From assembly GCA_038063755.1 (NCBI GenBank), contig JBBTUL010000011.1:3946-67945 (forward strand): 64,000 nucleotides of DNA, read 5' to 3'. Made by a program: the position numbers and the translations under genes. The DNA is from Patescibacteria group bacterium (lineage in GTDB: Bacteria; Patescibacteriota; Minisyncoccia; UBA6257; 2-01-FULL-56-20). The notes beneath the pieces are model-generated. The model was not told the DNA's origin and made no database searches. It worked only from the letters and a program-made list of their open reading frames with translations. Numbering within the stretch: position 1 is the first letter of the stretch; each line of letters starts with the position of its first letter. This document shows, piece after piece, positions 47,638 through 64,000 of the stretch.

Positions 47638-49293
47638 ATGAAGTTTGACGACAAAAAAATAAAGCAGATCCTCTTAAAAGAAAACTACGTTACCGAAGAA
47701 GATATTCGAAATGCAGAAAGTTTTACCAAAACACATCCTGTCTCGTTCACGGAGTATTTACTCAAGGAAAATCTCATCACCAAGGATCTCTTGGGGCAAA
47801 CGATCGCCGAATCGTTCGGCCTTCCGTATGCGGATCTTAACTTGCGTCCGGCAACGACCGAACAGGTTAATGTACTGCCGGAAGATATTGCGAAGAAATA
47901 TCGTCTTGTGGTGTTCTGGTGGAACGACAAGCGGGTCATTATAGCAACCGATGATCCTGGGCAACCCGGCGTGCTCGCGGCCGCGGCGCAGTTATATCCA
48001 AAGCGCGCGGTCTCTCTTGCGTACGCGTTACCAGAAGACGTTAATGCGGCATTTATTTTTTATCAAAAACCGCTCGAAACTCGCTTCGGGAAGATTATCG
48101 AGGGTCAGGGACGAATTGCTCCGGAGCTTTTGGAAGAAATTTTTGGGGACGCGATTGCGTATCACGCCTCTGATATCCATTTTGAACCTCAGCAAAAAAA
48201 TGTGCTTGTGCGATTTCGCATTGACGGAGTTTTGCACGTAGCCGGTAGGATCCCCAAAGAGTATTATGAGAATATTCTTAATCGCATAAAGGTGCAAAGC
48301 GGCCTGCTCATTGATGAACACTTTGCGGCTCAAGACGGTTCGCTTCGATATGAAAAAGACGGCTCAGCAATTGATATGCGAATTTCAATCGTGCCGACCA
48401 TTGAAGGCGAAAAAGCCGTCTTACGTATTTTAGCGGCGTATGCTCAGGGGCTTAACCTTTTAGACCTTGGACTTTCTCCATTGCATCAAGAATTACTTAA
48501 GGCATCTGCCAAAAAACCGTTTGGAATGATTCTCGTTACGGGGCCGACGGGTAGCGGAAAAACGACAACCTTGTACGCGCTCGTAAAACTCGTGAACAGC
48601 CCGGACGTGAATATCACCACCATCGAAGATCCGGTGGAATACAAGGTGCTTGGCATAAATCAAATACAAATAAATCCTCAGACTGATCTTACTTTTGCCA
48701 AAGGCTTACGCTCTATTGTGCGCCAAGACCCGGATATTATTCTCGTGGGCGAAATTCGAGATAACGAAACAGCAGAAATATCAATCAATGCGGCTTTGAC
48801 CGGACATTTGCTATACTCCACTTTTCACGCCAACGACTCCGCCGCGGCAATTCCCAGACTTCTTGATATGGGAGTTGAGCCGTTTCTCCTCGCTTCCACG
48901 CTTGAGGTGATCATTGCGCAACGGCTCGTGCGCAAAATTTGCGATCGTTGTCGTTATGGCGCGGAGAAAAAAATCGGTGATTTTGATACGCCACAATTTA
49001 AATCTGCCGCGCGTTATTTTCCCGAAGAATCCATAACGCTTTATCAAGGCAAGGGGTGCGCGTCGTGTAGCAATACGGGCTACCGAGGAAGAACTGCGAT
49101 TTTTGAGTTCATCCAAATTACTCCCGATATGCAAAATCTTATTTTACGCTCGCCGTCTTCCCAGGAAATCTGGTCTTTGGGGTGCAAAGAAGGTGCGCAA
49201 TCGCTTTTTGAAGATGGAATTCTGAAAGTAAGAGCCGGTATCACGACACTCGAAGAACTACTTCGCGTCGCTGAGCCGCCACAACAAAAATAG
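47638..49293 (+). CDS. pilB: Type IV pilus assembly ATPase PilB (GspE family)
   Basis: N-terminal GSPII_E_N-like domain, Walker A GPTGSGKTTT, Asp/His boxes, tetracysteine motif CDRC...CASC. Confidence 0.9.
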   Translation: MKFDDKKIKQILLKENYVTEEDIRNAESFTKTHPVSFTEYLLKENLITKDLLGQTIAESFGLPYADLNLRPATTEQVNVLPEDIAKKYRLVVFWWNDKRVIIATDDPGQPGVLAAAAQLYPKRAVSLAYALPEDVNAAFIFYQKPLETRFGKIIEGQGRIAPELLEEIFGDAIAYHASDIHFEPQQKNVLVRFRIDGVLHVAGRIPKEYYENILNRIKVQSGLLIDEHFAAQDGSLRYEKDGSAIDMRISIVPTIEGEKAVLRILAAYAQGLNLLDLGLSPLHQELLKASAKKPFGMILVTGPTGSGKTTTLYALVKLVNSPDVNITTIEDPVEYKVLGINQIQINPQTDLTFAKGLRSIVRQDPDIILVGEIRDNETAEISINAALTGHLLYSTFHANDSAAAIPRLLDMGVEPFLLASTLEVIIAQRLVRKICDRCRYGAEKKIGDFDTPQFKSAARYFPEESITLYQGKGCASCSNTGYRGRTAIFEFIQITPDMQNLILRSPSSQEIWSLGCKEGAQSLFEDGILKVRAGITTLEELLRVAEPPQQK

Positions 49294-49316
49294 CAACTGC
49301 TCTGTGTCTCTATTGT

Positions 49317-50408
49317 ATGCCGCAGGAAACATTACAGCGTAAATTTTTCAATATCGGCCTTGGCAGAGAACGGGAGTATTTTGTTGAAAATCTAAGTACG
49401 TTGGTCGCCGCTGGCATGCCGATCCTAAACGCGCTCGATGCCATTGTAAAAGGACTACGTTCACGCCGTATGAAGCACATCGTTGCTCTTATCCGGGATG
49501 ATATTGAATCCGGTTCGCCGATCTGGAAAGCGCTTAAGAAAACGAACCTATTCGCTGATCACGCCATCTCGCTCGTCCGGCTCGGCGAAGAAGCGGGAAG
49601 ATTGGCCGAGAACCTGAAGGTGGTCGCGAGCGAACAAGAGAAAGGGAGAGTTTTTCGCTCCAAGCTTCGTTCGGCAATGATGTATCCGGTCTTCGTGCTT
49701 TCACTCACGGTTATTATCGGCGTGGGTATTGCCTGGTTCATATTGCCCAAATTGGCGCTTGTATTTGCCCAGCTTCGAATAGAGTTGCCACTCATCACCA
49801 GGGTACTAATCGGAATCGGCATTTTTCTAAACAACTACGGGCAGTATGCCGTGCCTGCGGCCATCACGGTGCTCGTCGCTTTATTTTATTTTGCGTTTTT
49901 ATCTCCCAGGACAAAAGATATCGGTCAATTTATTTTATTTTCTTTGCCCGGCGTGAAGAGGCTTATTCAGGAGGTGGAGTTGGCGCGATTCGGTTATCTT
50001 TTGGGAACGCTTCTCGAAGCGGGCTTGCCGATCACACAGGCGCTCGGTTCGCTCGCAAGCGCGACCGAAATTCCGCAATACAGAAAACTTTACGCGTACC
50101 TTCACGATTCAGTGGAAGACGGCAACTCGTTCCAGAAAAGTTTTACTTCATTTAAGCACGTCGATCCCCTTATCTCCGTGCCCATACAGCAACTCATCAT
50201 CGTCAGCGAACAAGCCGGTACGCTTTCCAAAACGGTGCTCAAGATAGGCCAAATATATGAAACAAAGTCCGACACCACCGCAAAGAACCTCGCCGTCATT
50301 CTTGAGCCGATACTGCTTGTCATCGTGTGGCTTGGAGTCGTAGCTGTGGCGCTGGCAGTCATTCTGCCTATTTATAGTCTCATTGGCGGATTTAGTCCCA
50401 ACAATTGA
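49317..50408 (+). CDS. pilC: Type IV pilus platform protein PilC (GspF family)
   Basis: Two GspF repeats and three TM segments. Confidence 0.88.
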   Translation: MPQETLQRKFFNIGLGREREYFVENLSTLVAAGMPILNALDAIVKGLRSRRMKHIVALIRDDIESGSPIWKALKKTNLFADHAISLVRLGEEAGRLAENLKVVASEQEKGRVFRSKLRSAMMYPVFVLSLTVIIGVGIAWFILPKLALVFAQLRIELPLITRVLIGIGIFLNNYGQYAVPAAITVLVALFYFAFLSPRTKDIGQFILFSLPGVKRLIQEVELARFGYLLGTLLEAGLPITQALGSLASATEIPQYRKLYAYLHDSVEDGNSFQKSFTSFKHVDPLISVPIQQLIIVSEQAGTLSKTVLKIGQIYETKSDTTAKNLAVILEPILLVIVWLGVVAVALAVILPIYSLIGGFSPNN

Positions 50409-50412
50409 TCAG

Positions 50413-50856
50413 ATGAAAATTTGTAAGACCGGGGGCTTTACTCTGCTGGAAATAGTTCTCTCCATCGCGACGATTACGATTATTGCCGGAATTTCCATTC
50501 CCATCTATCAATCGTTCCAGGTTAAAAATGATTTGGATATTACCGCGAATACATGGGTCCAAACATTGCGGCGAGCCCAAGTACTTTCGCGCGCAGTTGA
50601 CGGAGACAGTACCTGGGGAGTAAAAATTCAACCCGCCGGTTTGATTTTATTTAAAGGCGCGAGTTACGACTCACGCGATGCTACCTTTGATGAAATTTTT
50701 ATGGTGCCCACGAGCATCAGCGCCTCCGGCATTACCGAAATCGTTTTTGCAAAGTTCACCGGCAACCCGCAGGCAACCGGTACCACAACGCTCACGGCTT
50801 CGACTGCCGAAATTAGGACGATTAACATAAATGAAAAAGGTACGCTTACATACTAA
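50413..50856 (+). CDS. Prepilin-type (minor) pilin
   Basis: MKICKTGG|FTLLEIVLS: class III signal with Glu+5. The ORF opens at 50383. Confidence 0.75.
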   Translation: MKICKTGGFTLLEIVLSIATITIIAGISIPIYQSFQVKNDLDITANTWVQTLRRAQVLSRAVDGDSTWGVKIQPAGLILFKGASYDSRDATFDEIFMVPTSISASGITEIVFAKFTGNPQATGTTTLTASTAEIRTININEKGTLTY

Positions 50857-52591
50857 GAAAGGCTTCAGTATTATTGAGGCGCTTCTCGCGGGGGCACTTT
50901 TTACGCTCATAGCCTCTGCTTTTATCGGAGCCGTCGTGTACGGCGAAGAAAGCACCCAGCTTTCGGGCGAATTGAGCCGAGGGGCAACTATTGCAGAAGA
51001 GGGAATAGAGGCGACTCGGAATATTCGAGATAACGCTTTTTCTAGCCTGACTGCCGGAAATAACGGCCTCGCGATTTCCGGAAATCAATGGATTTTCTCA
51101 GGAGTACAGGATGTCGTCGATATCTTTACCAGAAAAATTAATGTCGCTCCCAATTCGCTTGGGAGCGGGTCAAGGAGTGTGTCAGTGTCTACCACATGGA
51201 CACAAACACAGCAGAGAGGTGGTTCGATAAATATTTCTTCGTATCTCACCAACTGGCGCGGCTGCCGGGGAGGAATACTTGTCTACGGCGATGGTGGCGC
51301 GACAACTGACGCCATAAAATATAAAACCCTGAAGGGAAATGATGCCAGCGACTGTACTTGGAGTTCGGCCGCGTCCGCCGCGGATGTGGATACCGGCACT
51401 ACTAACAAAAGCCTTCGGGCGGTTCAGGTTTACGCCTCCTCCAATCGCCATGAAAAAATAATGCTCTCTCGCCATTACAATGGAACTACGCAGTATATAT
51501 ATGCGCAGGTTTTTGACGGCACTTCCGGCACATGGGGCAATGTCCAGTTGCTTTCCAGCTGGGCGGCGGCAACATTCTTAGATGTCCAAAATTTTAGCGG
51601 AACATATTTGGCGAACGGTGATTTTATGGTTGTTTATTCAGACAACGGCACCACTCCGAAATCCAGAACTTGGGACGGTTCGTCGTGGTTAGCACAAGTC
51701 TCAATGCCGGACATGGGTGGTAACCCAAACTACATTGTCGTGCGCGCAAGACCAGGTACCAACGAAGTGATGGCTGCCTTTTTTGATCAGTCGAGCGATA
51801 CAAATACAGAGTATTTCAATGGTGGAACGTATGCTACGGCAAATTGGACACTTCATACTGAACATGCAAGCGCGGCTCCGAATAACACGCAATGGCTTGT
51901 TGATTTTGCTTGGAGCCCTAACAATTCTCTTAAGGGCGGATTAATTTACTCCGATGCCGGAACTGACAAATCGCTTGATATTAAAATATGGACTGCGGAT
52001 GGTTCCGGTGGTGGATCTTGGAGTGCGGTTGTAAATAGCACTAATCAAGCAAGTAACCTCGGTCCGATGGCAATACGTGGACGACCGGGAATGGATGAAT
52101 TTGTAGCCTGTGATAAAGACGCCGGGAACCCTCCAAGAGTTATATGTTATAACAGCAATTTCACGCCAACGTGGACTAATCCGACCAACAACATAATCGT
52201 TGATGGAACAGATGCAGGCATACAGCGCAGTTTTGATATCGGTTTTGAATCAGTTTTCGGAGATCCGGCTGTGGCTGTTTATTCCGACCGAACACTGACC
52301 CCAAAGCTTAAAAAGTATACTGCCTCGACTACGACGTGGGATCTTAGCGCCACAAATTTGAGTGTGATTGACGCGGCTCTCGCGACTGTCCGCATAACTC
52401 CCTACCCAAACACGGATGAAATGATGATTCTCCTGGGTGATGTTAACTCTCGTTTTTATAGTGTTGTTTGGGACGGGGACAATAATGTCATCTACACTAC
52501 TCCCGGCGGATATGCATTTGCCGTTCATGGCGTCAATGGTTCAATAGTCGAGACAGATTATTGGTATGACTTCGCATGGGACCTTTATTAA
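50831..52591 (+). CDS. Giant pilin-like protein (586 aa) with prepilin N-terminus and WDG(S/T)xW repeat domain
   Basis: MKKVRLHTKKG|FSIIEALLAG prepilin signal. The body contains repeated ...TWDGSSW..., ...DGTSGTWGN... units. Confidence 0.75.
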   Translation: MKKVRLHTKKGFSIIEALLAGALFTLIASAFIGAVVYGEESTQLSGELSRGATIAEEGIEATRNIRDNAFSSLTAGNNGLAISGNQWIFSGVQDVVDIFTRKINVAPNSLGSGSRSVSVSTTWTQTQQRGGSINISSYLTNWRGCRGGILVYGDGGATTDAIKYKTLKGNDASDCTWSSAASAADVDTGTTNKSLRAVQVYASSNRHEKIMLSRHYNGTTQYIYAQVFDGTSGTWGNVQLLSSWAAATFLDVQNFSGTYLANGDFMVVYSDNGTTPKSRTWDGSSWLAQVSMPDMGGNPNYIVVRARPGTNEVMAAFFDQSSDTNTEYFNGGTYATANWTLHTEHASAAPNNTQWLVDFAWSPNNSLKGGLIYSDAGTDKSLDIKIWTADGSGGGSWSAVVNSTNQASNLGPMAIRGRPGMDEFVACDKDAGNPPRVICYNSNFTPTWTNPTNNIIVDGTDAGIQRSFDIGFESVFGDPAVAVYSDRTLTPKLKKYTASTTTWDLSATNLSVIDAALATVRITPYPNTDEMMILLGDVNSRFYSVVWDGDNNVIYTTPGGYAFAVHGVNGSIVETDYWYDFAWDLY

Positions 52592-52671
52592 TATATGGGC
52601 CACACCGCATATATTCTCATCCGCTCGAAAATATTTTAGCAAGCTAAATATTTTTCTCACTCATTTCGATT

Positions 52672-53127
52672 ATGAAAAAACAAAAAATCAAAATTAATTC
52701 CGGGTTCACACTTATCGAATTGCTCCTCTATGTAAGTTTGAGCGGGATAATTCTTCTTTCCACTTCTATTTTTTTGACATCACTCTTGGAAGCGAGGGTC
52801 AAGAATCAAACGATTGCGACAGTAGAACAAGAGGGGGCTCAAGTGATGGAAGCAATCAATCAAGCGGTCCGAAACGCTACCGCCATAAATTCGCCGGCAA
52901 CCGGAATGAGCGCCACGTCACTTTCAATTAATACAACCATACCGGCGAACAATCCTACTATTTTTGATTTATCGAGTGGTACTATCAAAATCCAAGAGGG
53001 AGCTGGGCCGGCGGTTTCGCTTACTTCCAATCGGAGTATTGTCTCCGGTTTAAACTTCCAGAATCTAACGAAGCCATTCACGTCAGGAAATATCCGAACA
53101 TTATTTATACTTACTCATATTCAATAA
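52672..53127 (+). CDS. Prepilin-type pilin
   Basis: MKKQKIKINSG|FTLIELLLYVSLS. Confidence 0.8.
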   Translation: MKKQKIKINSGFTLIELLLYVSLSGIILLSTSIFLTSLLEARVKNQTIATVEQEGAQVMEAINQAVRNATAINSPATGMSATSLSINTTIPANNPTIFDLSSGTIKIQEGAGPAVSLTSNRSIVSGLNFQNLTKPFTSGNIRTLFILTHIQ

Positions 53128-53139
53128 ATAACACCCAAC

Positions 53140-54207
53140 ATGAACCCGAAATTAAAAAAATCTAAAAAATGGTTTGCGCCCACTGGATTTTTTTTAGCAC
53201 TCTTTGTTGCGGTATTTTTTATAGCCAACAACATTATAGCTGCCGATGGATCGGGGACAAATACGGTAAGCCCGACCTCCGCAACCACAAGTTCTGCCGG
53301 CAACATTTTTAATTTCACCTTTACCGCTGCGGAAACAATGGATAGCGGCGAAATTAACCTTTTGACTCCGACCGGATGGAGCGCTATGCAGGGTGTTAGT
53401 GGAACTGCAGGATATACGACCGCCGCATCAACTGGCATGATTGCTAATGTTTTGGATAACGCGGATAGTATTACTGGCTGGTCGGCTGGCACCCAATGTG
53501 GCGGCGGCTTAACTTCGGATACGACAAATAAACAAGAGGGAACCGCTTCTATCAACTGCGCTGCCAACAACGAGGCTCTCGGTGATGTCTTTTATAAAAA
53601 CATTACCGCCCAGAATTGGTCTGGTTACACCAAGGTTGGTTTTTGGATACGTTCCGGTAAAGCTTTGGCCGCCGGCAATCTTCAATTCTCCTACGACGAC
53701 AGCAGTAATCTTGCCAGCCCAATTGAAAACATATCGGTTCCGGCCATCCCCTTCAATAGCCCATGGATGTATGTCGTTTTAGATTTAGGAGCTACCACCA
53801 GAACTTCGGTTGTAAGTTTTGGGTTCCGGAATAACACCGGCGGTGGGCCGTTGGACTTTACGACGTTTCGTATAGACGACCTACTAATAGGCCCCGGATC
53901 GCTCTCTTTCCCTGGCGGTGGTGTTGTCGGTGCCAGACTGCTTCAATTGTCAAACACCCAGACCGTAACAATCACGTATGGCTCCGGCGGGGGATCAAGC
54001 GGCGTCACCGCGCCGGCAATAGTGGGAGCGGCTATGGCAACTACCACGAATAGAGTTTCAGATGCCGGAACACTGACTAATGTAGGTACCCAACCAACGC
54101 TAACTGCGATCGATCCTGCCTCCACGACCACCTCTACTGCGCCGACTATTGGCCGATACGAATATATTTATTCAAGAACTTTTTCCGGCGACGCAAGCCT
54201 TAGATAA
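53140..54207 (+). CDS. Secreted Ser/Thr/Gly-rich protein in pilus locus
   Basis: Sec-type signal peptide, no Glu+5. T/S/G-rich body. Confidence 0.5.
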   Translation: MNPKLKKSKKWFAPTGFFLALFVAVFFIANNIIAADGSGTNTVSPTSATTSSAGNIFNFTFTAAETMDSGEINLLTPTGWSAMQGVSGTAGYTTAASTGMIANVLDNADSITGWSAGTQCGGGLTSDTTNKQEGTASINCAANNEALGDVFYKNITAQNWSGYTKVGFWIRSGKALAAGNLQFSYDDSSNLASPIENISVPAIPFNSPWMYVVLDLGATTRTSVVSFGFRNNTGGGPLDFTTFRIDDLLIGPGSLSFPGGGVVGARLLQLSNTQTVTITYGSGGGSSGVTAPAIVGAAMATTTNRVSDAGTLTNVGTQPTLTAIDPASTTTSTAPTIGRYEYIYSRTFSGDASLR

Positions 54208-54208
54208 T

Positions 54209-54592
54209 ATGAAAAATAAAGGATTTATAACCCTGGCAAGTGTTTTGGTTATAAGCGCAGTCGGTCTATCGATCGCGTTGTCCCTTGTACTGCTTGGCCT
54301 GGGTTCTTCACGAACCAGTTTCGCTCTTAATCAATCAATTCAGGCGAGGGGCCTGGCGAATGCCTGCGCCGAAGAATCTTTGCGTAAGGTTAAAAACTCA
54401 CTTCTCTTCGTGGGAACTTCAACCCTAACCTTACCCGGGGGCACCTGCGTGTATGCCGTTACGAATACCGGCGGTCAAGCAAGAGCCATTACCACCTCGG
54501 GCCAGGTCGGCGCCATTATCCGCAAGGTCAATATATCAATTAGTCGAATTACACCATTTATTACCGTTACCTCTTGGCAGGAATTGCCATAA
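54209..54592 (+). CDS. Pseudopilin-like minor pilin lacking Glu+5
   Basis: MKNKG|FITLASVLVIS. The ORF opens at 54149. Confidence 0.55.
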   Translation: MKNKGFITLASVLVISAVGLSIALSLVLLGLGSSRTSFALNQSIQARGLANACAEESLRKVKNSLLFVGTSTLTLPGGTCVYAVTNTGGQARAITTSGQVGAIIRKVNISISRITPFITVTSWQELP

Positions 54593-54680
54593 TTTCTGAA
54601 AAGTTTTCCTTAATGTATAATTAAGGAGGGTAAAGGTCGTTCTTAAGCAACCACTTAACTAATTAACTAAAGAGCAGCAC

Positions 54681-55169
54681 ATGAAAAAACTAATTCGTAA
54701 TTCCCGATTGCAAAGCAATCGAGGATCCTCGATTAAATCGGGACAAAAAGGGTTTACGCTTCTCGAAATTCTTCTCGTTGTCGCCGCCATCGGTACCTTG
54801 GCCGGCATCGTTATTTTGGCCATCAATCCGAACAAACAGCTTGGTGACACGAGGAACGCCCAACGGAAAGCCGATGTGAATACGATCCTGAATGCCATCT
54901 ATCAATATTCGATTGATAATAACGGAGCATTACCGGCGGCTATTACCACCGGCTCGGTAGCAATCTGCAGAACTGGCGCTGTCTGTACCGGCTTGATCGA
55001 TCTGGGCGTGCTTACCGCCAATGAGAAATATCTCACGTCAATACCGTTTGATCCGAACGGATCCACTGCGACCAGTACGGGCTATACGGTCATCAAATCC
55101 GTCAATAACAGAATAACCATAGCGGCTCCGAGTGCCGAACAGAGTGCAGTTATTAGTGTCACAAGATAA
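54681..55169 (+). CDS. pilA: Type IV major-pilin-like protein (PilA-like) with long leader and C-terminal disulfide loop
   Basis: ...GQKG|FTLLEILLVVAAIGTLAG. Cys pair CRTGAVC. Strong terminator follows. Confidence 0.8.
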   Translation: MKKLIRNSRLQSNRGSSIKSGQKGFTLLEILLVVAAIGTLAGIVILAINPNKQLGDTRNAQRKADVNTILNAIYQYSIDNNGALPAAITTGSVAICRTGAVCTGLIDLGVLTANEKYLTSIPFDPNGSTATSTGYTVIKSVNNRITIAAPSAEQSAVISVTR

Positions 55170-55293
55170 TCTCGTTGAGATGCCTGATTCCCAGACTGAT
55201 AAGGGGCGTCGCGGAACTTTAAACCACTATTACAATAGGTATATATTAGTGTAATATGCGTTTACATAATCATGCCTAATCTTCAAGACAAAA

Positions 55294-55322
55294 AGACCGC
55301 CGATTCGTTCGGTGGTTTTTTG
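55294..55322 (+). terminator. Rho-independent terminator (ACCGCCGA-ttcgt-TCGGTGGT + T6)
   Basis: 8-bp stem with one G-U pair, then TTTTTT. 125 nt after the pilA stop. Confidence 0.65.
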
Positions 55323-55567
55323 CTCTGGATACGGCGCTCAGTCCTGCCGGCAGGCAGGCGATATGACGTGGGTGGGACAGAGTGCTTTCGCTTTTCAGTT
55401 ATCGCCGCTCCTCGATTGAGATAACCGGAATTGGTGACATCTCGCCGTGCATAAGTGCGGAGCAAAACCCCGCACTAAGGGCCAGACACGCCAGACTTTA
55501 TCCACCAACAGATTCGGCGGCCTTCTGGTGCGTGGGTAGGGGGAGGTGGGCTAATGACGAACGAAAT

Positions 55568-55597
55568 AAAGCGGAAAACCATTCGCTTTATTTTTTT
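55568..55597. terminator. Bidirectional terminator hairpin (AAAGCG-10 nt loop-CGCTTT) flanked by A-run and T7
   Basis: Abuts the stop of the minus-strand P-loop kinase. It would also terminate any + strand transcript from the 55.33-55.57 kb element. Confidence 0.5.
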
Positions 55598-55599
55598 GA

Positions 55600-56145
55600 T
55601 TATAAATCCAGCCTACTCGCGAGCTGTTCTACGTCTCCATCGTTTTCTACCACAACCACCTGATATTCCTTTGCCTCTCGGATCAAATAGTCCTGAATTA
55701 TTCTTACGGCCCTAAAAATTTCTTCCTGAAGATCGCTGTGCTCTCGATGCTTGAAGTATTGGGAGTAATGTTTTTTCTCGTCGGGTGTGACGACAAGGAT
55801 CAACTTTCCATGCGGGGCAACCAATGCAGGGTTAAGAAATGCGGCTTCCATGATTAATTTGTCCGGATATTTTGCCATCTCATTTTCGACATATGGTGCC
55901 ATGCTGTTGCGAACCGCCCGAAGTCCCTTGGTGACATTCTCTTCGGTCAGTTTCCCAAACTCGCGATACGCTTCTTTGGTTCCAACCCACACAAAAGGAT
56001 CCTCTTCCCGGGTTTTTTCTTTTTGAGCCACGACTTCCCGCAAGAAATCAGCTTCAACCAATGGATAGTGAAATTTCTTTTGAAGTTCGAGGCTAAGGGT
56101 GGTCTTTCCCGATCCGGGAGCGCCATAAATTAGGATTTTGTTCAT
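55600..56145 (-). CDS. P-loop NTPase / small-molecule or nucleotide kinase-like protein
   Basis: MNKILIYGAPGSGKTTLS Walker A at the N-terminus. The ORF opens at 56205. AT-rich. Confidence 0.6.
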   Translation of the reverse strand: MNKILIYGAPGSGKTTLSLELQKKFHYPLVEADFLREVVAQKEKTREEDPFVWVGTKEAYREFGKLTEENVTKGLRAVRNSMAPYVENEMAKYPDKLIMEAAFLNPALVAPHGKLILVVTPDEKKHYSQYFKHREHSDLQEEIFRAVRIIQDYLIREAKEYQVVVVENDGDVEQLASRLDL

Positions 56146-56219
56146 CGGGTCAATGATAATGGTTAAACGGAACGGCGTTCCCAAAGTGCCGTCAGGATCT
56201 CTCAACTATTCCTGCAAAA

Positions 56220-56750
56220 TTAGATTAAAGAATCAAAAACCACACACTTTAATCGTATCAACCCCTTTTTTATTGTATCGGGGTTTGTTTTTTTGTAATA
56301 ACTGATTTCAGCTCCATATCCTGGATGAACTGCAAATATCGGATGTTTAAAAACCGGTCCAAGTCCCCACTTAGAAATCACAATGTTTCCGCCCTGAAAA
56401 ATACCAGCGTGCTTAATCACTTTATTATTTTTATAAATAATATAATCACCAACAACGGGGCTTGATATCTCTTTAAGTATTTTCCCATCAACCAACTCTT
56501 GAACACGATTTTCAGTTCCCAACAGCGCACGTTCAAAGGATGCGTCATTGTTTAGTCCAAATGCATAAACATAACAATTATGACAAGCATCATTTTTGAT
56601 GGGCAATCGAAAAAGATTTAATCCTTCAGGAAGATGCGGATGTATATTTTTTTTAAATTGGTCGGGATCATTCCAATCACTCGCATTATCATTTCGATAA
56701 TTTGATGCGATCCACCTTCTAAGCAATTTTTCTTTTTCTGTTACATTCAT
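56220..56750 (-). CDS. Putative papain-like Cys/His amidase (NlpC/P60- or YiiX-like)
   Basis: Candidate Cys (DACHNCYVYAFG) and His (KVIKHAGIF...ISKWG) motifs in NlpC/P60-like order. AT-rich. Weak assignment. Confidence 0.4.
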   Translation of the reverse strand: MNVTEKEKLLRRWIASNYRNDNASDWNDPDQFKKNIHPHLPEGLNLFRLPIKNDACHNCYVYAFGLNNDASFERALLGTENRVQELVDGKILKEISSPVVGDYIIYKNNKVIKHAGIFQGGNIVISKWGLGPVFKHPIFAVHPGYGAEISYYKKTNPDTIKKGLIRLKCVVFDSLI

Positions 56751-56905
56751 TATTTAACAAAGAGGGTCTACCTTACTTTTTACCTTTCCGAAGCATAGGA
56801 GCTGCTAAAACCTGGTTCTTTTGGATATATTAGCCCCGCTATCGCTTCGCTCAGACGGGGCATAAGGCTTTCTAATCGCGGATACCCGATAAGAAAAGCC
56901 TAATG

Positions 56906-56976
56906 CTGGGGGTCAGGGACTCGAACCCCGATACCTGCCTCCAAAGGGCAGTGTCCTACCATTAGACGAACCCCCA
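56906..56976 (-). tRNA. tRNA-Pro (anticodon TGG), CCA not encoded
   Basis: Reverse complement folds as TGGGGGT-TC-GTCT..GGAC-A-CTGCC-TTTGGAG-GGCAG-GTAT-CGGGG-TTCGAGT-CCCTG-ACCCCCA-G. Confidence 0.85.
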
Positions 56977-57218
56977 ACGTACTTCACTATTAGATCAGTC
57001 TCGACTAGACATCAAGTCTAGGCGGGCGATCCCCCAAACGTCACTAAGCCGTTATATTATTCGCCGAATCACCCGAAAAGGCAACATATGTGCCGAGAGT
57101 TAATATAAGGAAAAGGTAAAAATGTGTTAAAATTTTTCAGTGAACCTCTTTCGGAAAAAACACGAAGGGCGGCGGTTTTTCGGCATTCGAAAAGTTCGGC
57201 ACGAATCCAACATGTTTC

Positions 57219-58190
57219 ATGACAAATAAGTTTTCCTCACTCTTTTCAAATAGGCGATTCTCCCTCTGGCTTGGAGTATTTTGTGCGGTAAGCGTCGTCT
57301 TTTCGTTTTGGCTTCTTATGTTCCGCATTCCAGCCATCCGGCGCGAAGCGCAACAGAGTTTTTACCACCAATATCCGCTCCTCGACCCCGCACGGAACTT
57401 CGTTGCCCAGGATGACTTCATCGTCAATCTTCAACCGCTTCGCGAGGAGCTGCGCGATCTCGTAAAATGGGAGTATCCTCGATCCGTTTCGCTCTATTTC
57501 GAGTTTCTGAACACCGGCGCGAACATCGCGATCAACCAAGACCTGAATGTTTGGCCTGCTTCATTGCCGAAAGTGCCGATGGCGATGGCGGTCTTGAAAA
57601 AAGTCGAGCAAGGGGTTTGGTCAATGGGTCAAAAATTCGAACTTTTGGAGTCCGACAAGGACGCGAACTACGGATCGCTTTTCAACGTGCCCTCGGGAAC
57701 CATTCTTTCGCTCGAGAGACTTTTATCCGAGATGCTTTCACGTTCCGACAATACGGCGTATAAGGTTTTTCTGCGCAATGTCAGCACAAGGGAACTGGAT
57801 GATGTTATTTTGGAGCTCGGGTTGGAAGATCTTTTCACGGAGGACGGGTTGGTGAGTTCAAAAGAGTATTCGCGCCTTTTCCGTTCCATCTACACTTCGA
57901 GCTTCCTCAAGCGTGAATACTCGACCCGTATCCTCGAGTTGCTCGCCAAATCCGACTTCAAGGACTTTCTCGCTTCAGGACTACCATCCGAAATTATATT
58001 CCCGCATAAGTTCGGGATAGACCGGACAAGAGACGCATATCTTGATGCCGGCATCGTTTACGTTCCCGACAGGCCCTACCTCATTACGGTTGCGGTTCAG
58101 GGAGAAGGCGGCCCTGGCGAAGAAGAGAAGGTCCGGGAATTTATGAAAGAGGTTTCTCGAAAGGCCTACGAATACATCTCGGCGCAATAA
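57219..58190 (+). CDS. Membrane-anchored class A beta-lactamase-like serine hydrolase (PBP-like)
   Basis: N-terminal TM helix. SxxK (SLPK), SDN (SRSDNTAYKV) and KTG-like (HKFG) motifs in canonical order. Confidence 0.7.
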   Translation: MTNKFSSLFSNRRFSLWLGVFCAVSVVFSFWLLMFRIPAIRREAQQSFYHQYPLLDPARNFVAQDDFIVNLQPLREELRDLVKWEYPRSVSLYFEFLNTGANIAINQDLNVWPASLPKVPMAMAVLKKVEQGVWSMGQKFELLESDKDANYGSLFNVPSGTILSLERLLSEMLSRSDNTAYKVFLRNVSTRELDDVILELGLEDLFTEDGLVSSKEYSRLFRSIYTSSFLKREYSTRILELLAKSDFKDFLASGLPSEIIFPHKFGIDRTRDAYLDAGIVYVPDRPYLITVAVQGEGGPGEEEKVREFMKEVSRKAYEYISAQ

Positions 58191-58192
58191 CG

Positions 58193-61100
58193 GTGCCCCA
58201 TGACCACATGAGCATTTTCTGGGAGAAAAACAAAGAGGGAAACATGATCGACGCGTTGGGTCGGAGGAAGAGCCTCTCTTTTATTTTCTCGCTGGGCCGC
58301 CGAAATACCCGTGGTGTGGTTGACCTCCGACTGCCCTTTCGCCGACGATATCCCGTCATAGCCGCATCCCTGCTCCTTGTAACCGTCATAGCCGCTTTCG
58401 GCGCGCGATCACTCCTTACGAAGGCGGAGGTGACCGATTTTCATCCGCTTACGTGTCTCGGGAGCTGGGAACATACATCCCGAGCCGAGGGGAAACCAGA
58501 AGCTCTTAACGATGCCACACTTCTCACGGCGGATGTTTCCGCGATATTTACGCAACCGACGAGCCAAATTTTTTGCGGCAACTTCATTCCTGATGATTTT
58601 AAAGAAGCAGGCACGATAACGAGTGTGGGATTGACCTTTACGTGGAAGATTGAAGGAGGGGATCAAGAGGGAAGTGTTGACCAATCCTCATCGGAAGAAA
58701 CGGTATTGCCTCCGGCAGGCGAAACGAATTTGGAGATGCCGACATCATCGGCACTTCTCGCGCCGAAGATAAAATTCTTCAGAGTTGCAAAAGCCGAGGA
58801 GGTGGTTCCACCGGAGCCGATGCCCGCGCCGGTTGAGACCGTCCCCGAAGAAACCCCGACGCCCACCCCAACCCCAGAGCTGCCTTCACCTTCCCCGGAA
58901 GTTATTCAAGACGGCGTGTCCGAACCGGAGGCGGTTCCTGTCGAAGAAAGCATCGTTCCGGAAAATGACGCTACTCCCGACGCGACATCTGGAGAAGTCC
59001 TCGGAGAATCCCAAGAGGCGGTTCCCGTAACCTCTTCGACGGAGAATGATGCGGGTAATGGTGTCGTGGATGAAAACCAAAACCCGGAAATTCCGTCGTT
59101 TGCTCCTTCCACTCCGCCGTTTCTCCGCGTGAGCTACAGTCTTGACGGTACGAACTGGTTTTCACTCGCCGACGTTTCCAGGGAGATGCTTGCCCAACTT
59201 ACGGTTTCCATTCCGCTTACTTCGTGGAGCGATCTAAAAAAACTTCAGATAGGGATCGAGGGAGTCCCTGCGGCGCTTCCGGTGCTTCCTAGAGTTCTCC
59301 TCGACGGGATGCTTCTCGAGGTGCACTACGAGATACCGCCGCTTTTCACGAACAACGAGCCGGACGAAGATATTGTTCCCGCTCCACAGGGATCGCTTCT
59401 TCCCGTTGTTCCCGTACTGCCTGCCATGGAAGGAGCGAGCACCGGCACTCCGCCTTCTTTCGGAGGAGATGAGTCGCCGAGTTTCGAGCTTGATATGGAT
59501 TCGCTCACGCCTATTCCGGAAAGTGAACTGCCTCCGCTTTCGTTTCACCATCCCGCGACAAGGAACTCTCTTTTTGGAAAAATAGCGAAGTGGTTGGGGG
59601 TCACCGGTTCCGCATTCGCACAGCAAAACGGAGAAACCCCGCCGCCGCTCCCCACGGCAGAAAACCCGATCATCGCGAGAGTTTTTAACCACGGGGACGA
59701 TGAGTTGGATATCCTTCCCCAGGTACTTCTTTCCAACAACCGCCTTAGGGTTAATGTTCCTCAACCGGCGGATCAGTTTGCTCCCGGGAAATATCTCCTC
59801 CGCGTCTGGGTGTGGCGCAACGGGAACATTTATTACACGGAAAACTCGTTTACCTGGGGCGTTCTCGCGATGAATCCGAACAAATTCGTTTATCTTCCGG
59901 GAGAGACATCGAAGATTGGCATCGCGGTTCTCGACGAGGGAGGTGACATGGTCTGCGATGCCAATGTCCGGCTCGAGATCACCACGCCCTCCAGCACGGT
60001 GCGCACGCGCGCGACGAGTGACGGAAGTATTGTCGTGAACGAGGAATGTAATCTCAAGGGATTTACGGAGAGACCGGACTACGAAACCGATTATCAAGTA
60101 GAAGAGCCGGGTATCTATCAGACGAGGCTTACGGCGACAACGGAGAACGGAACGCATACCATATACGATTCATTCGAAGTGCGTGAGTCAGTTTCATTCG
60201 ATATCGAGCGAAAATCGGCCACGCGCATTTACCCTCCCACACCGTATCCCGTCCGCATTGCGATCAAGACAACAGAGGCGTTTTCCGGAGATATCGAAGA
60301 GCGCGTACCGCTCTCCTTCGAGGTGAAGCACATATCCCACGGAGGACAAGTTGTCCGCCGGAACGAGGACCAGGTTATTCGATGGGCGGTCGATCTCCCT
60401 GCGGGAGGAACAATCGAGCTTCTGTACGATTATCTTGCTCCCGAAGTAAGTCCCCAGTTCTACCTTCTCGGCCCCCTTCGGGTCGGTACTTTCTCCGAGA
60501 CCCGGCGTTGGCAGATCGCCGCCGACGCGATCGCTTCAAACTCGGCGAGGACGTTCTACAGCGTTACCAATAATGCGGGAAGACTCATGTGGGCTACGGG
60601 AGCATCGAATTCAACGGGAGCCGAAATCGCCGGTCCGGTCGGAACGGCTGCCACCTCCTCTTTTGTGAAAGCGGCACATGGACCGACCAGGGACGAGATT
60701 TTGGCCGGAATGATAAAACGTGATGGACTGCTTGCATTGTCGCTCGTTATCGGAAACCAGGATGCCGCAGGGGATGCGGTGCTTCAGTTTGATCAGGCAA
60801 GCGTCACTTCGGCTCAAGCATGCGATGCGGTGACATTCGGTTCCTGTTGGCGCGCATTTGATATCGCTTACGAACAACTATCGGGAGAGGGAATGGTCGC
60901 ATTTGCGAGCACGACGGCATCGCGGCTCGCGTATCGTACCTGGGACGGTACAAATTGGTCTCCGGCGACAACGAGCGCTCCGAGCGTTGTGAATATGGGG
61001 GGTACCGGCGCAATCCGGTGGGTAAGGCTTATTCCAAGAGGGGAAATGCTCAAAGGAAGCCGCTCGGACGAAATACTTGTTATCACTTCGGATGCCAACT

Positions 61101-63316
61101 CCGATATCTTCGCAGGTATTTGGAATGGTTCGGCATGGACCGCCACAACAACCATCACCGCCGCCGCCTCGACGTTCCACACACAGAATTTTGACGGAGC
61201 ATGGGAGGAATCCTCCGGAGACGCGATGGTTGTCTGGGCGGAGGGAACAGCGGCGACCACCACTCCGTATCGATACAAGAAATGGACGCGATCCTCGACG
61301 ACATGGGCTTCTTCGGGGTTGCCCCTGCCGGCGATGGGAGCATCGCATATCGGACACTGGGTTGCGGCAAAGGCGGCGCCTATCGCGGGCAAAAATCATA
61401 TTGCGGTTATTACAAGCTCGGCGACCGCCGTCGGGAATAATTGCGGCACCGGAACCAACTGCCGAGCTCAACCATTTATTTGGGACGGTTCAGGTTTTAC
61501 GATGGGAAACGAATGGACGTCGCAAGAACCCGTCTGGCAACAAGCCGTGAACGTTGCGGTTGAATCGGTGAATACAAACGTACAGGTCTTTTACGCATCT
61601 TCTATTGCGCAGAGCACCACCGTTGTAAGTTCCTATGAAACATGGATAGAAGGAACGGGATTTTCCGCCGTAACCACTCTTGCCGGGTCAATGGGAGATG
61701 ATCTTGCGGGGGTACAAACGACGGCGCACCCGAATTCCACCGAAGTGTTTGTGACGGTTGAAGATGTTGATGCCGACTGTAACGGCATTGCGTGGAACGG
61801 GGCGACGACGACGGCCGCATGGGATATAACGGGGTGTAACTCCGCCGGAGAGACCGCGCTTGCTCCTCTGTCTCACACGGCGCAACCGAGCGAAGGATCC
61901 GCATTTTGGGTGGTAGCGAAGCCCTACTCGCCATGGCAGAGGAACTGGCGTTTCTACGGAGACATTACGGAAAACGACCCGGACAACACTGCGGACGTCT
62001 TGGGGACGAGCGAAAACGGATCCCCGGCGATTTCCCAGGAAGGATTCGCCCGGCTCCGAATGCAGTTTGTGGAATTAACGAACATTGCCCAGACCGATGC
62101 CCGAAAGAAGATCCAATGGACCACGGAAAACCCGGACTATTCGACATCCACCTGGACCGACGTGGGAGATACGTCGGAAACAGGAGCGGTGTGGAGATAT
62201 GCGACAGCGGCGGAAACATGCGCCAACTGTAGTGACAACACCACAATCGGAGCGACTCGTCTTACGGGAAGTTCGCAGTCCGGTACTTATATTTCGGACA
62301 AGGACGCGGCTGCGGGAACAGGAATGGATCACACTGCGCTTGCGCTCTCGGAATACGATTATCCGATTAAGGCGGAAAACGCAACCTCGGGTACCACATA
62401 CTATTTCCGCGCGTACGACAACGACCAGCTCACTCCCGTCTTTCGGGAGCAGGACAGCGACGGATCCAACGACTGCTCAAGCGCGGCATGTGTGTATCCA
62501 AGCGCCACCGTTCAAGCGCCAGCCAATAACCTTCCGACACTTTCCGCGCTCTTACTAAACGGAGGGTCGGCTATCACTGTTATAGAAAATACCTCGACTT
62601 CAATTGCGGTTACGGGTACTGCCACGGATCTCGATGGAAACGCGGACATTTCTTTCGCGACGGGAACCATCTACCGGTCGGGAGTCGGCGGGGGAGCCTC
62701 ATGCACGAGCAACGAGAATAATTGTTATCGCGTCGCATCCTCTTCATGTGCCAAATCAAACTGTTCGGGAAACAGTTGTGATTTCACCTGCACCGCGAAG
62801 ATACAGTATTTTGCGGACCCTACCGACTCGGGAGCGTTCTCTGCGGAAAACTGGCTTGGACAAATCACTGCGACGGATGCCGCGGGAGCGACGGGAGTTT
62901 CGACAACCGTCTCCGGTGTCGAACTCAACACGCTTTTTTCGCTGAATATCACCAATTCAATTAATTTCGGAAGTCTCCTGCCGGGAGGGGATAGCGGTGC
63001 CGTAAATCAGATTGCAACAACCACGAACACCGGGAATGCGGCGATCGATGTCGAATTCTCCGGGACAAATATGGTTTTCGGCGCGAATACCATCGCCGTA
63101 GGAAATGAAAGATACGCGACAAGCACCTTCACCTATTCGAGTTGTACGGTTTGTACCGCTCTTACCACCATTGCCACCGCCTACGAACTTGATCTTGCGA
63201 AACCTACCTCGACGGCTGTTGTGGAAGACACCGTTTTTTGGGGGTTAAGCGTACCGAACGGGAACCCGCCGGGAAGCTATACCGGTACGAGCACGTTTAC
63301 CGCGGTGACGGACTAA
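58193..63316 (+). CDS. Giant surface protein (1707 aa): TM anchor, Pro/Thr/Glu-rich linker, WDG(S/T)xW repeat region, C-terminal Cys-containing NNCYR domain
   Basis: GTG start. TM near aa 50-72. PEPMPAPVETVPEETPTPTPTPELPSPSPE linker. Repeats YRTWDGTNWS / IWNGSAWT / IWDGSGFT. C-terminal domain with the CTSNENNCYR motif. Confidence 0.8.
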   Translation: MPHDHMSIFWEKNKEGNMIDALGRRKSLSFIFSLGRRNTRGVVDLRLPFRRRYPVIAASLLLVTVIAAFGARSLLTKAEVTDFHPLTCLGSWEHTSRAEGKPEALNDATLLTADVSAIFTQPTSQIFCGNFIPDDFKEAGTITSVGLTFTWKIEGGDQEGSVDQSSSEETVLPPAGETNLEMPTSSALLAPKIKFFRVAKAEEVVPPEPMPAPVETVPEETPTPTPTPELPSPSPEVIQDGVSEPEAVPVEESIVPENDATPDATSGEVLGESQEAVPVTSSTENDAGNGVVDENQNPEIPSFAPSTPPFLRVSYSLDGTNWFSLADVSREMLAQLTVSIPLTSWSDLKKLQIGIEGVPAALPVLPRVLLDGMLLEVHYEIPPLFTNNEPDEDIVPAPQGSLLPVVPVLPAMEGASTGTPPSFGGDESPSFELDMDSLTPIPESELPPLSFHHPATRNSLFGKIAKWLGVTGSAFAQQNGETPPPLPTAENPIIARVFNHGDDELDILPQVLLSNNRLRVNVPQPADQFAPGKYLLRVWVWRNGNIYYTENSFTWGVLAMNPNKFVYLPGETSKIGIAVLDEGGDMVCDANVRLEITTPSSTVRTRATSDGSIVVNEECNLKGFTERPDYETDYQVEEPGIYQTRLTATTENGTHTIYDSFEVRESVSFDIERKSATRIYPPTPYPVRIAIKTTEAFSGDIEERVPLSFEVKHISHGGQVVRRNEDQVIRWAVDLPAGGTIELLYDYLAPEVSPQFYLLGPLRVGTFSETRRWQIAADAIASNSARTFYSVTNNAGRLMWATGASNSTGAEIAGPVGTAATSSFVKAAHGPTRDEILAGMIKRDGLLALSLVIGNQDAAGDAVLQFDQASVTSAQACDAVTFGSCWRAFDIAYEQLSGEGMVAFASTTASRLAYRTWDGTNWSPATTSAPSVVNMGGTGAIRWVRLIPRGEMLKGSRSDEILVITSDANSDIFAGIWNGSAWTATTTITAAASTFHTQNFDGAWEESSGDAMVVWAEGTAATTTPYRYKKWTRSSTTWASSGLPLPAMGASHIGHWVAAKAAPIAGKNHIAVITSSATAVGNNCGTGTNCRAQPFIWDGSGFTMGNEWTSQEPVWQQAVNVAVESVNTNVQVFYASSIAQSTTVVSSYETWIEGTGFSAVTTLAGSMGDDLAGVQTTAHPNSTEVFVTVEDVDADCNGIAWNGATTTAAWDITGCNSAGETALAPLSHTAQPSEGSAFWVVAKPYSPWQRNWRFYGDITENDPDNTADVLGTSENGSPAISQEGFARLRMQFVELTNIAQTDARKKIQWTTENPDYSTSTWTDVGDTSETGAVWRYATAAETCANCSDNTTIGATRLTGSSQSGTYISDKDAAAGTGMDHTALALSEYDYPIKAENATSGTTYYFRAYDNDQLTPVFREQDSDGSNDCSSAACVYPSATVQAPANNLPTLSALLLNGGSAITVIENTSTSIAVTGTATDLDGNADISFATGTIYRSGVGGGASCTSNENNCYRVASSSCAKSNCSGNSCDFTCTAKIQYFADPTDSGAFSAENWLGQITATDAAGATGVSTTVSGVELNTLFSLNITNSINFGSLLPGGDSGAVNQIATTTNTGNAAIDVEFSGTNMVFGANTIAVGNERYATSTFTYSSCTVCTALTTIATAYELDLAKPTSTAVVEDTVFWGLSVPNGNPPGSYTGTSTFTAVTD

Positions 63317-63413
63317 TGGGGAATTGTGCACATGTGGGCGCTTTCCGCCTCAAGGCATCTCTGATACAATGGAACCGAGGGGGAAAAATAAAAACTTTAT
63401 AAAATGAACCCAA

Positions 63414-64000
63414 TATTCAAGATATACGCGGTGTCAGTTGTGATGGCGCTCGGCATTCTTGGTGCGTTCGGAGCACTTCAATTTGTACTTGCGGACGGAT
63501 CAAGCACCGCAGTAGTCGTCCAGAACGCCGCTCCCTCGGTGAGTGCCGTTGATTTGACGGCGAATCCGATTACCCTTACCGAGAATACTTCTACGACCGT
63601 TACTATTACGGCGACCGTGACCGATTCGAACGGTTGCGACGACGTATTTACGAGCGGCACCATTCTTGCGACAGTCTATCGATCCGGGCTCGCGGCGACT
63701 TCCTCATGCTCGGCGGATGAAAATAACTGCTACAGAAACGTTCCTCTTGCGGAAGTGGGGAATACTTGCACGGGAGGGAGCGATACGACAGGAGACGCGT
63801 CGGGAACGATCCCGCTTTGGTATTTCGCCGAGGCAACGGATGCAAGCTCGACCTATCCCACCGAGACCTGGCAGGTTGCGGTTACCGCGCGCGATGCGAC
63901 GGGAGACTCCGGAACTTCAACCGACAGCACTCCTCCGGAGCTTAATTCGCTCTATGCCTTGAACGTCACGTCCGCCATCAACTTTGGAACAGTTCCGCCG
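63414..64000 (+). CDS. Secreted protein, 3-prime truncated by window edge; paralog of the C-terminal NNCYR domain of the preceding giant protein
   Basis: Hand translation: MNPIFKIYAVSVVMALGILGAFGA...SSCSADENNCYRNVPLAEVGNTC...NVTSAINFGTVPP. It aligns position-for-position with residues ~1500-1650 of the 58193 protein. Confidence 0.7.

Follow-up and report, generated by a model that had tools for sequence, protein, structure and literature searches.

The 64,000-nucleotide stretch of a Patescibacteria contig analysed here (hereafter the window; GenBank JBBTUL010000011.1, positions 3,946 to 67,945) ends in two plus-strand genes that share a module of ~272 amino acids (aa), which we termed A1: a large gene coding for a 1707-aa modular surface protein, and a small gene coding for a secreted protein. 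Just beyond the window end lies a third gene, coding for a membrane-anchored protein (A3) that resembles the WxLIP partner proteins of Firmicute WxL clusters. We consider it an even chance that these three genes constitute a surface-display operon working like a WxL cluster, a reading that builds on the domain anatomy of the proteins, their homologies, the conserved gene order, the C-terminal position of A1 and the size of the A1 family, all of which were observed directly. To our knowledge, all cultivated Patescibacteria are attached to other cells, and little is known about how their adhesins are displayed and anchored beyond type IV pili. An uncatalogued C-terminal module, carried by thousands of proteins and accompanied by a WxLIP-like partner, is a candidate anchoring route for the variable and giant surface proteins of the ultrasmall bacteria of the candidate phyla radiation (CPR), and suggests that the logic of WxL-type clusters reaches beyond Firmicutes. 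The membrane-anchored WxLIP-like third gene, which lay outside the view of a preliminary description of this DNA, changes the picture.

The A1 module and the conserved gene order

The large-protein gene spans 58193-63316 on the plus strand and, as the preliminary description had it, codes for 1707 aa, starting from a GTG codon (open reading frame (ORF) list and translation; 100% match to P0001). In the NCBI version the protein is 1702 aa long, begins at an ATG at 58208 and is listed as a hypothetical protein of 'Patescibacteria group bacterium' (AAB495_02730). Its A1 module occupies aa 1436-1707 (62498-63313, plus strand), as delimited by an AlphaFold2 model (m4994ef912427), the A1 family alignment and the hidden Markov model (HMM) boundaries. 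The small gene begins at 63404, also on the plus strand, and is cut by the window end at 64000. We recovered its remainder from L004, an independent assembly of the same DNA from Hainich groundwater (5 mismatches in 14143 nt), which reaches 4.2 kb beyond the window end. With this extension the complete gene runs from 63404 to 64336 in window-equivalent coordinates, and its translation of 310 aa consists of a signal peptide (predicted cut after VLA30) and the A1 module alone.

The similarity between the two proteins had been described as a recurrence of the last ~170 aa of the large protein at the start of the next gene. As far as the window reaches, the next ORF is 41% identical to the end of the large protein over 169 aa (90.5 bits, E=2e-26), and 200 composition-preserving shuffles of this comparison gave at most 23.1 bits, and so the alignment is significant beyond composition. 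When the complete 310-aa small protein was compared with the C-terminus of the large protein, the identity was 43% over 278 aa (E=5e-59). The recurrence thus stands, with two corrections: what the two proteins share is the module in full, ~272 aa rather than ~170 aa, and the small gene starts at 63404, not at 63414.

A1 has no Pfam or NCBIfam model and no relative that we could detect in the PDB by sequence search; more generally, searches of Pfam, NCBIfam and PDB sequences returned no above-threshold match for any of the three proteins (large, small and A3). A first, word-based search for the family yielded 62 clusters, and an exhaustive profile search returned 3325 representatives of 50%-identity clusters at E<=1e-3, 2430 at E<=1e-10 and 1308 at E<=1e-30. 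Among the 150 best representatives, which are 263 to 7622 aa long, nearly all have the match running to their extreme C-terminus. AlphaFold2 modeled A1 as two tandem beta-sandwiches (pLDDT 94), with an NNCYR motif and a Cys cluster in the first sandwich and the motif YWG[LI]xVP...GxYTGTxTFTA at the very end, while a conserved N-terminal TxVxVxNxxP segment was left unpacked in this monomer model. A Foldseek search of the A1 model against the PDB retrieved generic tandem immunoglobulin (Ig)-like and FnIII folds alone, with RbmA as the top match at a TM-score of about 0.2. Giant A1 proteins of 3500-7622 aa are common (P0098, P0110, P0119, P0123, P0149, P0150, P0190 and P0197), and in the loci of giant genes (L016-L065) a second A1-ending protein of ~600-660 aa and an A3 are found about 4-8 kb downstream.

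The gene order large-A1, small-A1, A3 was found in the window lineage (L004), in its 62%-identical relative L001 and in the divergent loci L007, L008 and L009. Across these five loci, the second gene codes for a protein of ~300-320 aa with a signal peptide and A1 only. The third gene codes for A3, a protein of ~290-335 aa (290 aa in the window lineage, from the gene just beyond the window end) that combines a signal peptide and a conserved FG[VI]SPP start with two Ig-like domains and, at the C-terminus, a transmembrane helix.

We then took a census with one genome per species, using a closer A1 sub-alignment for the scan, and obtained 78 loci, described by simple ORF calls and HMMs rather than curated genes. 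Essentially all belong to the CPR, including Microgenomates, many Paceibacteria groups, Dojkabacteria, Magasanikbacteria, Kerfeldbacteria and others. In 53 of the 78 loci the gene next downstream of an A1 gene codes for A3, and several of the loci that lack A3 break off no more than about 1 kb past their last A1 gene. At least two A1 genes are present in 53/78, and A1 is C-terminal in most of the large proteins (exceptions: L042, L068, L074, L076 and L083), whose passenger domains vary widely between lineages. Two of the module loci, L058 and L073, come from metagenome-assembled genomes labelled 'uncultured Gammaproteobacteria bacterium', which may reflect either an error in the binning label or a true occurrence outside the CPR.

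The preliminary description took the C-terminal domain for a cassette that is undergoing duplication, and this view did not hold. The L004 extension showed a single paralog downstream, the large-small pair is already present in all five of the loci found first, and the count of loci with two or more module genes given above points the same way. No nucleotide similarity was detected between the two module copies of the window (best blastn match 21 bits, E=0.23), and since the copies lack DNA similarity and the same gene order recurs in independent assemblies, the downstream ORF cannot be the product of a misassembled repeat. In a neighbor-joining tree of the modules, the large-protein copies of L004, L001 and L008 cluster together and so do the small-protein copies; because the tree splits by large versus small, the duplication predates the separation of these lineages, and a recent duplication was rejected. 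At L009 (2293-5236), the identity between the large and small A1 modules, at 63%, exceeds that between either of them and any module from another locus, which suggests homogenisation by gene conversion or a separate duplication.

In L004 the operon runs on beyond the small gene with four further genes (L004:14511-18333, window-equivalent 64368-68190), the first of which is that of the 290-aa WxLIP-like protein. The next codes for 198 aa, with double-disulfide repeats of acidic character and a dockerin domain (Pfam 23.8 bits, cut-off 22.9), and the last two for a transmembrane-anchored protein of 285 aa and for one of >494 aa that matched cohesin below threshold (E=0.001).

The A3 partner and the comparison with WxL clusters

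The WxL surface-display clusters of lactic acid bacteria and other Firmicutes comprise a small protein that is a WxL domain alone, a large protein in which variable, adhesin-like domains precede a WxL domain at the C-terminus, and a WxLIP (DUF916-DUF3324-transmembrane helix), and AlphaFold2 predicts that a strand of the WxLIP inserts into and completes the WxL sandwich (PMC9772566, PMC10599100). More than 91% of WxL sequences come from Firmicutes (PMC9772566). The cluster definition of Hassan & Williamson asks for neighboring genes that code for one or more WxLIP-type proteins and for two or more proteins, one small and one large, with the C-terminal domain in common. The large, small and A3 genes, which follow one another consecutively in L004 and the window, correspond to it at the level of architecture only.

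For the comparison of A3 with WxLIP we assembled real WxL clusters from Firmicute plasmids, which were found by way of a peptide stretch in a published WxL supplement, and compared profiles after removal of signal peptides and transmembrane helices. The trimmed A3 profile aligned to WxLIP in hhalign with a probability of 78-90% (E=1.9e-6 to 1.9e-5) over 222-224 collinear columns, with the first A3 domain aligned to DUF916 and the second to DUF3324; over all versions of the comparison, against 8-12 real WxLIPs, the probability was 69-90% (E=1.9e-6 to 4.6e-5). In the controls, a reversed alignment gave an E value of 0.22 and the lowest of 30 column shuffles gave 0.086. The architecture of A3, two domains and a transmembrane helix behind a signal peptide, is identical to that of WxLIP, and the Pfam family WxLIP_HBD matched 4/50 A3 members, all below threshold (best E=0.0013). 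None of the A3 members had a DUF916 match or a WxLIP-type Pfam match above threshold, and the conserved WxLIP motif NQIDKxxxYFDLK is absent from A3. Taken together, these sequence comparisons suggest that A3 is probably a distant relative of WxLIP, or else an analogue.

The operon resembles WxL/Csc clusters in its secreted small protein, made up of the shared domain only, in its large protein that carries this domain at the extreme C-terminus behind variable adhesin-like domains, and in the product of the adjacent gene, which combines a signal peptide and two Ig-like domains with a C-terminal transmembrane helix and is similar to WxLIP by profile. It differs from them in that A1 is a module of two beta-sandwiches with no detectable relation to WxL, in its host phylum (Patescibacteria), in the lack of an LPXTG protein or sortase in the operon, in large proteins of up to 7622 aa, and in the dockerin and cohesin-like genes that follow. 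In the library that we searched, no literature links Patescibacteria surface proteins to WxL, and the sole paper that contains both words is unrelated.

On the WxL-like reading, the Sec pathway would export the large protein, and A1 would serve as a retention or assembly domain, alone in the small protein and C-terminal behind variable passengers in the large ones. The A1 module of the large protein and the secreted small A1 protein would then dock onto the membrane-anchored A3 and be held at the cell surface, possibly by beta-strand complementation, by analogy with the WxLIP-WxL pair. From there, the stalk and the Ig-like spacers of the large protein would project its lectin-like propeller, which would bind a glycan ligand on a host cell. 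The A1-A3 interaction, the retention at the surface and the binding of a ligand are thus what we infer from the anatomy described above and below.

Some A3 partners are longer (L040, L051, L056, L058 and L063): behind two transmembrane helices they carry a bacterial SH3 domain (Pfam SH3_3, E as low as 2e-10), which would be extracellular in this arrangement and hints at cell-wall binding.

The large protein, its propeller and the 586-aa pilin

The N-terminal export signal of the large protein (58193-58426, plus strand) comprises, by sequence and hydropathy, a basic N-region of ~52 aa, a hydrophobic stretch at aa 53-72 (58349-58408) and the sequence T-K-A↓E-V-T-D-F, where the arrow marks the proposed cut. 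It had been taken for a transmembrane anchor; the hydrophobic stretch is there, and the N-terminus may stay on as a signal anchor or, as a signal peptide with an extended N-region, be cleaved off after A78, given that the pattern T-x-A↓E-[VI]-x-D-F behind the hydrophobic stretch is kept in 5/5 subfamily members that were checked. Neither a class III signal peptide (G↓F/M xxxE) nor an N_methyl match was found in the large protein, which has a Sec-type hydrophobic stretch instead, and no LPxTG-like sorting motif was found in it or in the five proteins encoded downstream.

The Pro/Thr/Glu-rich stalk that had been described is present at aa 166-310 (58688-59122, plus strand; P 19%, E 16%, V 11%, S 10% and T 9%), and a second Pro-rich linker follows at aa 386-500 (59348-59692, plus strand). 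The region of aa 501-770 (59693-60502, plus strand) presumably forms Ig-like or MG-like beta-sandwiches, to judge by a sub-threshold match to Pfam MG2 (E=0.009). Next comes the predicted beta-propeller of aa 784-1201 (60542-61795, plus strand), and then a beta-sandwich at aa 1238-1439 (61904-62509, plus strand), which was predicted from AlphaFold2 strands at lower confidence (model residues 468-669); this sandwich (YSPWxRNWRFY ... TYYFRxYD) accompanies the propeller in the relatives P0071-P0075. Among the census loci, the propeller is restricted to the window lineage.

The repeats that the preliminary description had noticed in this region belong to the blades of the propeller in the structural model. 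Four W(D/N)G(S/T)xW units match the strict pattern, at aa 917, 977, 1031 and 1097 with a spacing of 54-60 aa, and two degenerate units lie at aa 1151 (WIEGTGF) and 1200 (AWNGAT). A BLAST of the large protein against itself gave no internal repeats at E<1, the blades being too divergent for it, and so we turned to structure prediction. The AlphaFold2 model of the repeat region (mf4769e50cff6, from an 18-sequence alignment) had a mean pLDDT of 74 and a pTM of 0.76, and its ~27 strands over aa 784-1201 are consistent with a propeller of about 7 blades. Foldseek matched this model to beta-propellers, with the lectins PLL3/PHL, AAL/FleA and RSL and also sialidases at the top (E about 1e-9, target TM-score 0.5-0.6, for a model of moderate confidence at pLDDT 74), and the sequence identity to the matched lectins was 10-14%. 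The six- or seven-bladed propeller fold by which the beta-propeller lectins (PLL/PHL, AAL/FleA, RSL) are recognised is thus seen in the large protein at the level of this model.

A propeller of the same family forms the head of a 586-aa type IV prepilin that is encoded upstream (50831-52591, plus strand; translation and BLASTP), has the class III signal KKG↓FSIIE and carries its propeller at aa ~147-586. Its gene is flanked by those of PilB, PilC and N_methyl pilins. That the two proteins have a repeat type in common had been proposed, and we could substantiate it: direct BLASTP between them was weak (best E=1e-5, in several collinear segments), and a search with the propeller region retrieved P0076-P0079 and P0083 (E 1e-25 to 1e-17), which are ~560 aa long and begin like type IV pilins. 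One of these, P0076, matches the propeller of the large protein at E=1.3e-25 in a search of 5.8 billion sequences and the 586-aa pilin of the window at E=4e-28, and since it links both transitively, the two propellers are homologous. This shows that a single genome has one type of lectin-like head on two platforms of delivery, the pilin and the A1-bearing surface protein, and it suggests that a module is shared between the platforms, not that they are physically associated. The W(D/N)G(S/T)xW propeller family was also found in a protein of a Hadarchaeales archaeon (P0081) and in proteins without a pilin N-terminus (P0080, P0086), and the 35-aa Pfam motif DUF2510 gave sub-threshold matches in both the large protein and the pilin (E 0.005-0.01).

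A lectin-like role of the propeller is proposed on the strength of the Foldseek matches to lectins and of PilX2 of Nanosynbacter lyticus TM7x, a minor pilin needed for efficient host binding, with a heptabladed propeller that in its model is like PLL-type fucose lectins (PMC11623550). With this precedent and the PLL-type matches, the adhesion role suggested in the preliminary description is plausible. PilX2 and the large protein are alike in being CPR surface proteins with a PLL-like propeller of ~7 blades (by fold), and the 586-aa pilin has the same design of pilin plus propeller. They differ in that the large protein is not a pilin, and in that the propeller of PilX2 was described with RCC1 repeats, for which no match was found here. 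The type IV pilus tip protein PilY1 also carries a 7-bladed propeller, and the likeness to PilY1 and to modular pilins belongs to the neighboring 586-aa pilin, not to the large protein. In modular type IV pilins, such as PilB of Streptococcus sanguinis, a functional module is grafted onto a pilin (PMC8179133).

Weighing of the readings and the surroundings of the operon

Several observations weigh against an operon that works like a WxL cluster. The likeness of A3 to WxLIP is remote and below Pfam thresholds, and the generic Ig-like families CARDB, NEW3 and LEA_2 score similarly. A1 itself gave no Pfam WxL match, either in the large protein or in 38 members of its family, and its hhalign comparisons with small and large WxL domains remained at E>=0.029 and a probability below 2% and were unstable between alignments. 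Adding WxL sequences and taking sub-domains did not bring these comparisons to significance, and so we do not claim homology of A1 to WxL; as far as its sequence goes, A1 fails as a member of the WxL domain family. It has one W-x-[LI] motif (YWG[LI]) versus two in WxL, its other conserved Trp having no Leu behind it. Two further points concern the large protein: its N-terminal hydrophobic stretch, if uncleaved, would be a permanent anchor and make retention by the C-terminus redundant, and Foldseek matches to lectins are typical of many propellers.

It is possible, rather than probable, that A1 and A3 constitute a CPR-wide and previously undescribed apparatus for display or assembly, which would be the main mount for variable and giant proteins (to ~7600 aa). 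In its anchoring domain such an apparatus would have an evolutionary origin apart from WxL, and it might use beta-strand complementation to polymerise or to dock.

We regard as unlikely a third view, in which the operon builds a fibre of a non-type-IV kind by donor-strand exchange, with the small A1 protein as the polymerising subunit, the large protein as a FimH-type tip adhesin and A3 as a tethered PapD-like chaperone or platform. It would account for an adhesin with a C-terminal subunit-like domain alongside a subunit made of that domain alone, and for the two Ig-like domains of A3, which are also found in periplasmic chaperones. The mature small protein opens with a conserved, strand-like ADxxxTSVTVGNxAPxV, whose equivalent in the large protein is the segment left unpacked in the monomer model, and A1 ends in a strand, G-x-Y-T-G-T-x-T-F-T-A, which we take to be like the last strand of many pilin-like Ig folds. 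FimH-type two-domain adhesins are indeed alike in having a receptor-binding part, a C-terminal subunit-like Ig domain, and a single-domain subunit and two-Ig helper encoded alongside. Against this, the operon showed neither an usher nor a sortase or LPXTG signal, the A3 helper has a membrane anchor and a likeness to WxLIP, no chaperone came up when PDB sequences were searched with the A3 profile, and the Foldseek matches of A1 were the generic ones given above.

A similarly low probability attaches to the operon coding for a structural component of the envelope, S-layer-like or a cell-wall scaffold, that includes the dockerin and cohesin-like proteins and has no specific role in adhesion. The genes for a dockerin protein and for transmembrane-anchored cohesin-like proteins follow A3 not only in L004 but also in L001, L008 and L009 (L007 was left out), the module family is very large and found on giant proteins, and the SH3b domains that some A3 members add are of a cell-wall-binding type. 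The widely varying passengers, with a propeller only in the window lineage, are however more typical of adhesins under diversifying selection, and the propeller is common to a type of pilin that is implicated in host binding.

The reading of the preliminary description, namely a family of adhesins associated with the adjacent type IV pilus whose cassette-like C-terminal domain is actively duplicating, is very improbable. In its favor are the homology of the propeller with the head of the 586-aa pilin, encoded by a gene that ends 5.6 kb upstream, and a type IV pilus locus about 6 kb upstream in a second lineage (L008/L013). Against it, PilB or PilC lies within 10 kb of the module in only 2/78 census loci, which largely refutes this reading, the closest relative, L001, has ribosomal genes and no pilus genes upstream, opposite-strand genes separate the two gene sets in the window, the large protein lacks a class III signal, and the duplication is old with a single paralog downstream. 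A frequency of 2/78 is, by our own estimate, about that of chance adjacency in ~1-Mb genomes with several type IV pilus loci.

Returning to the display operon, its large gene is preceded in the window, at a gap of 2 nt, by a gene of the Beta-lactamase2 family (57219-58190, E=2.4e-34), and the same arrangement is seen in L001; the two genes may be co-transcribed, and the role of the Beta-lactamase2-family gene could be cell-wall related. The type IV pilus genes upstream lie at 47638-55169 (PilB at 47638, PilC at 49317 and N_methyl pilins at 50383, 52672 and 54681), and the two minus-strand genes between them and the large-protein operon at 55600-56750. Across 55000-64000, promoter-like and terminator-like sites were no more numerous than in shuffled sequence. 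On the plus strand, 3' of the last pilin gene, a 13-pair hairpin with a T-run (55563-55594) could be the terminator of the pilus operon. The guanine-plus-cytosine (GC) content is 0.54-0.56 at 58001-64000 as compared to about 0.44-0.53 elsewhere in the window, a rise that is found mainly at second codon positions (GC2), in keeping with the Thr/Ala/Gly/Ser/Pro-rich proteins, with third positions (GC3) modestly up; as it is mostly driven by amino acid composition, we did not take it as evidence of transfer. Within the pilus region, a 355-aa ORF (53140-54207) gave a weak match to CBM_11 (E=0.0023).

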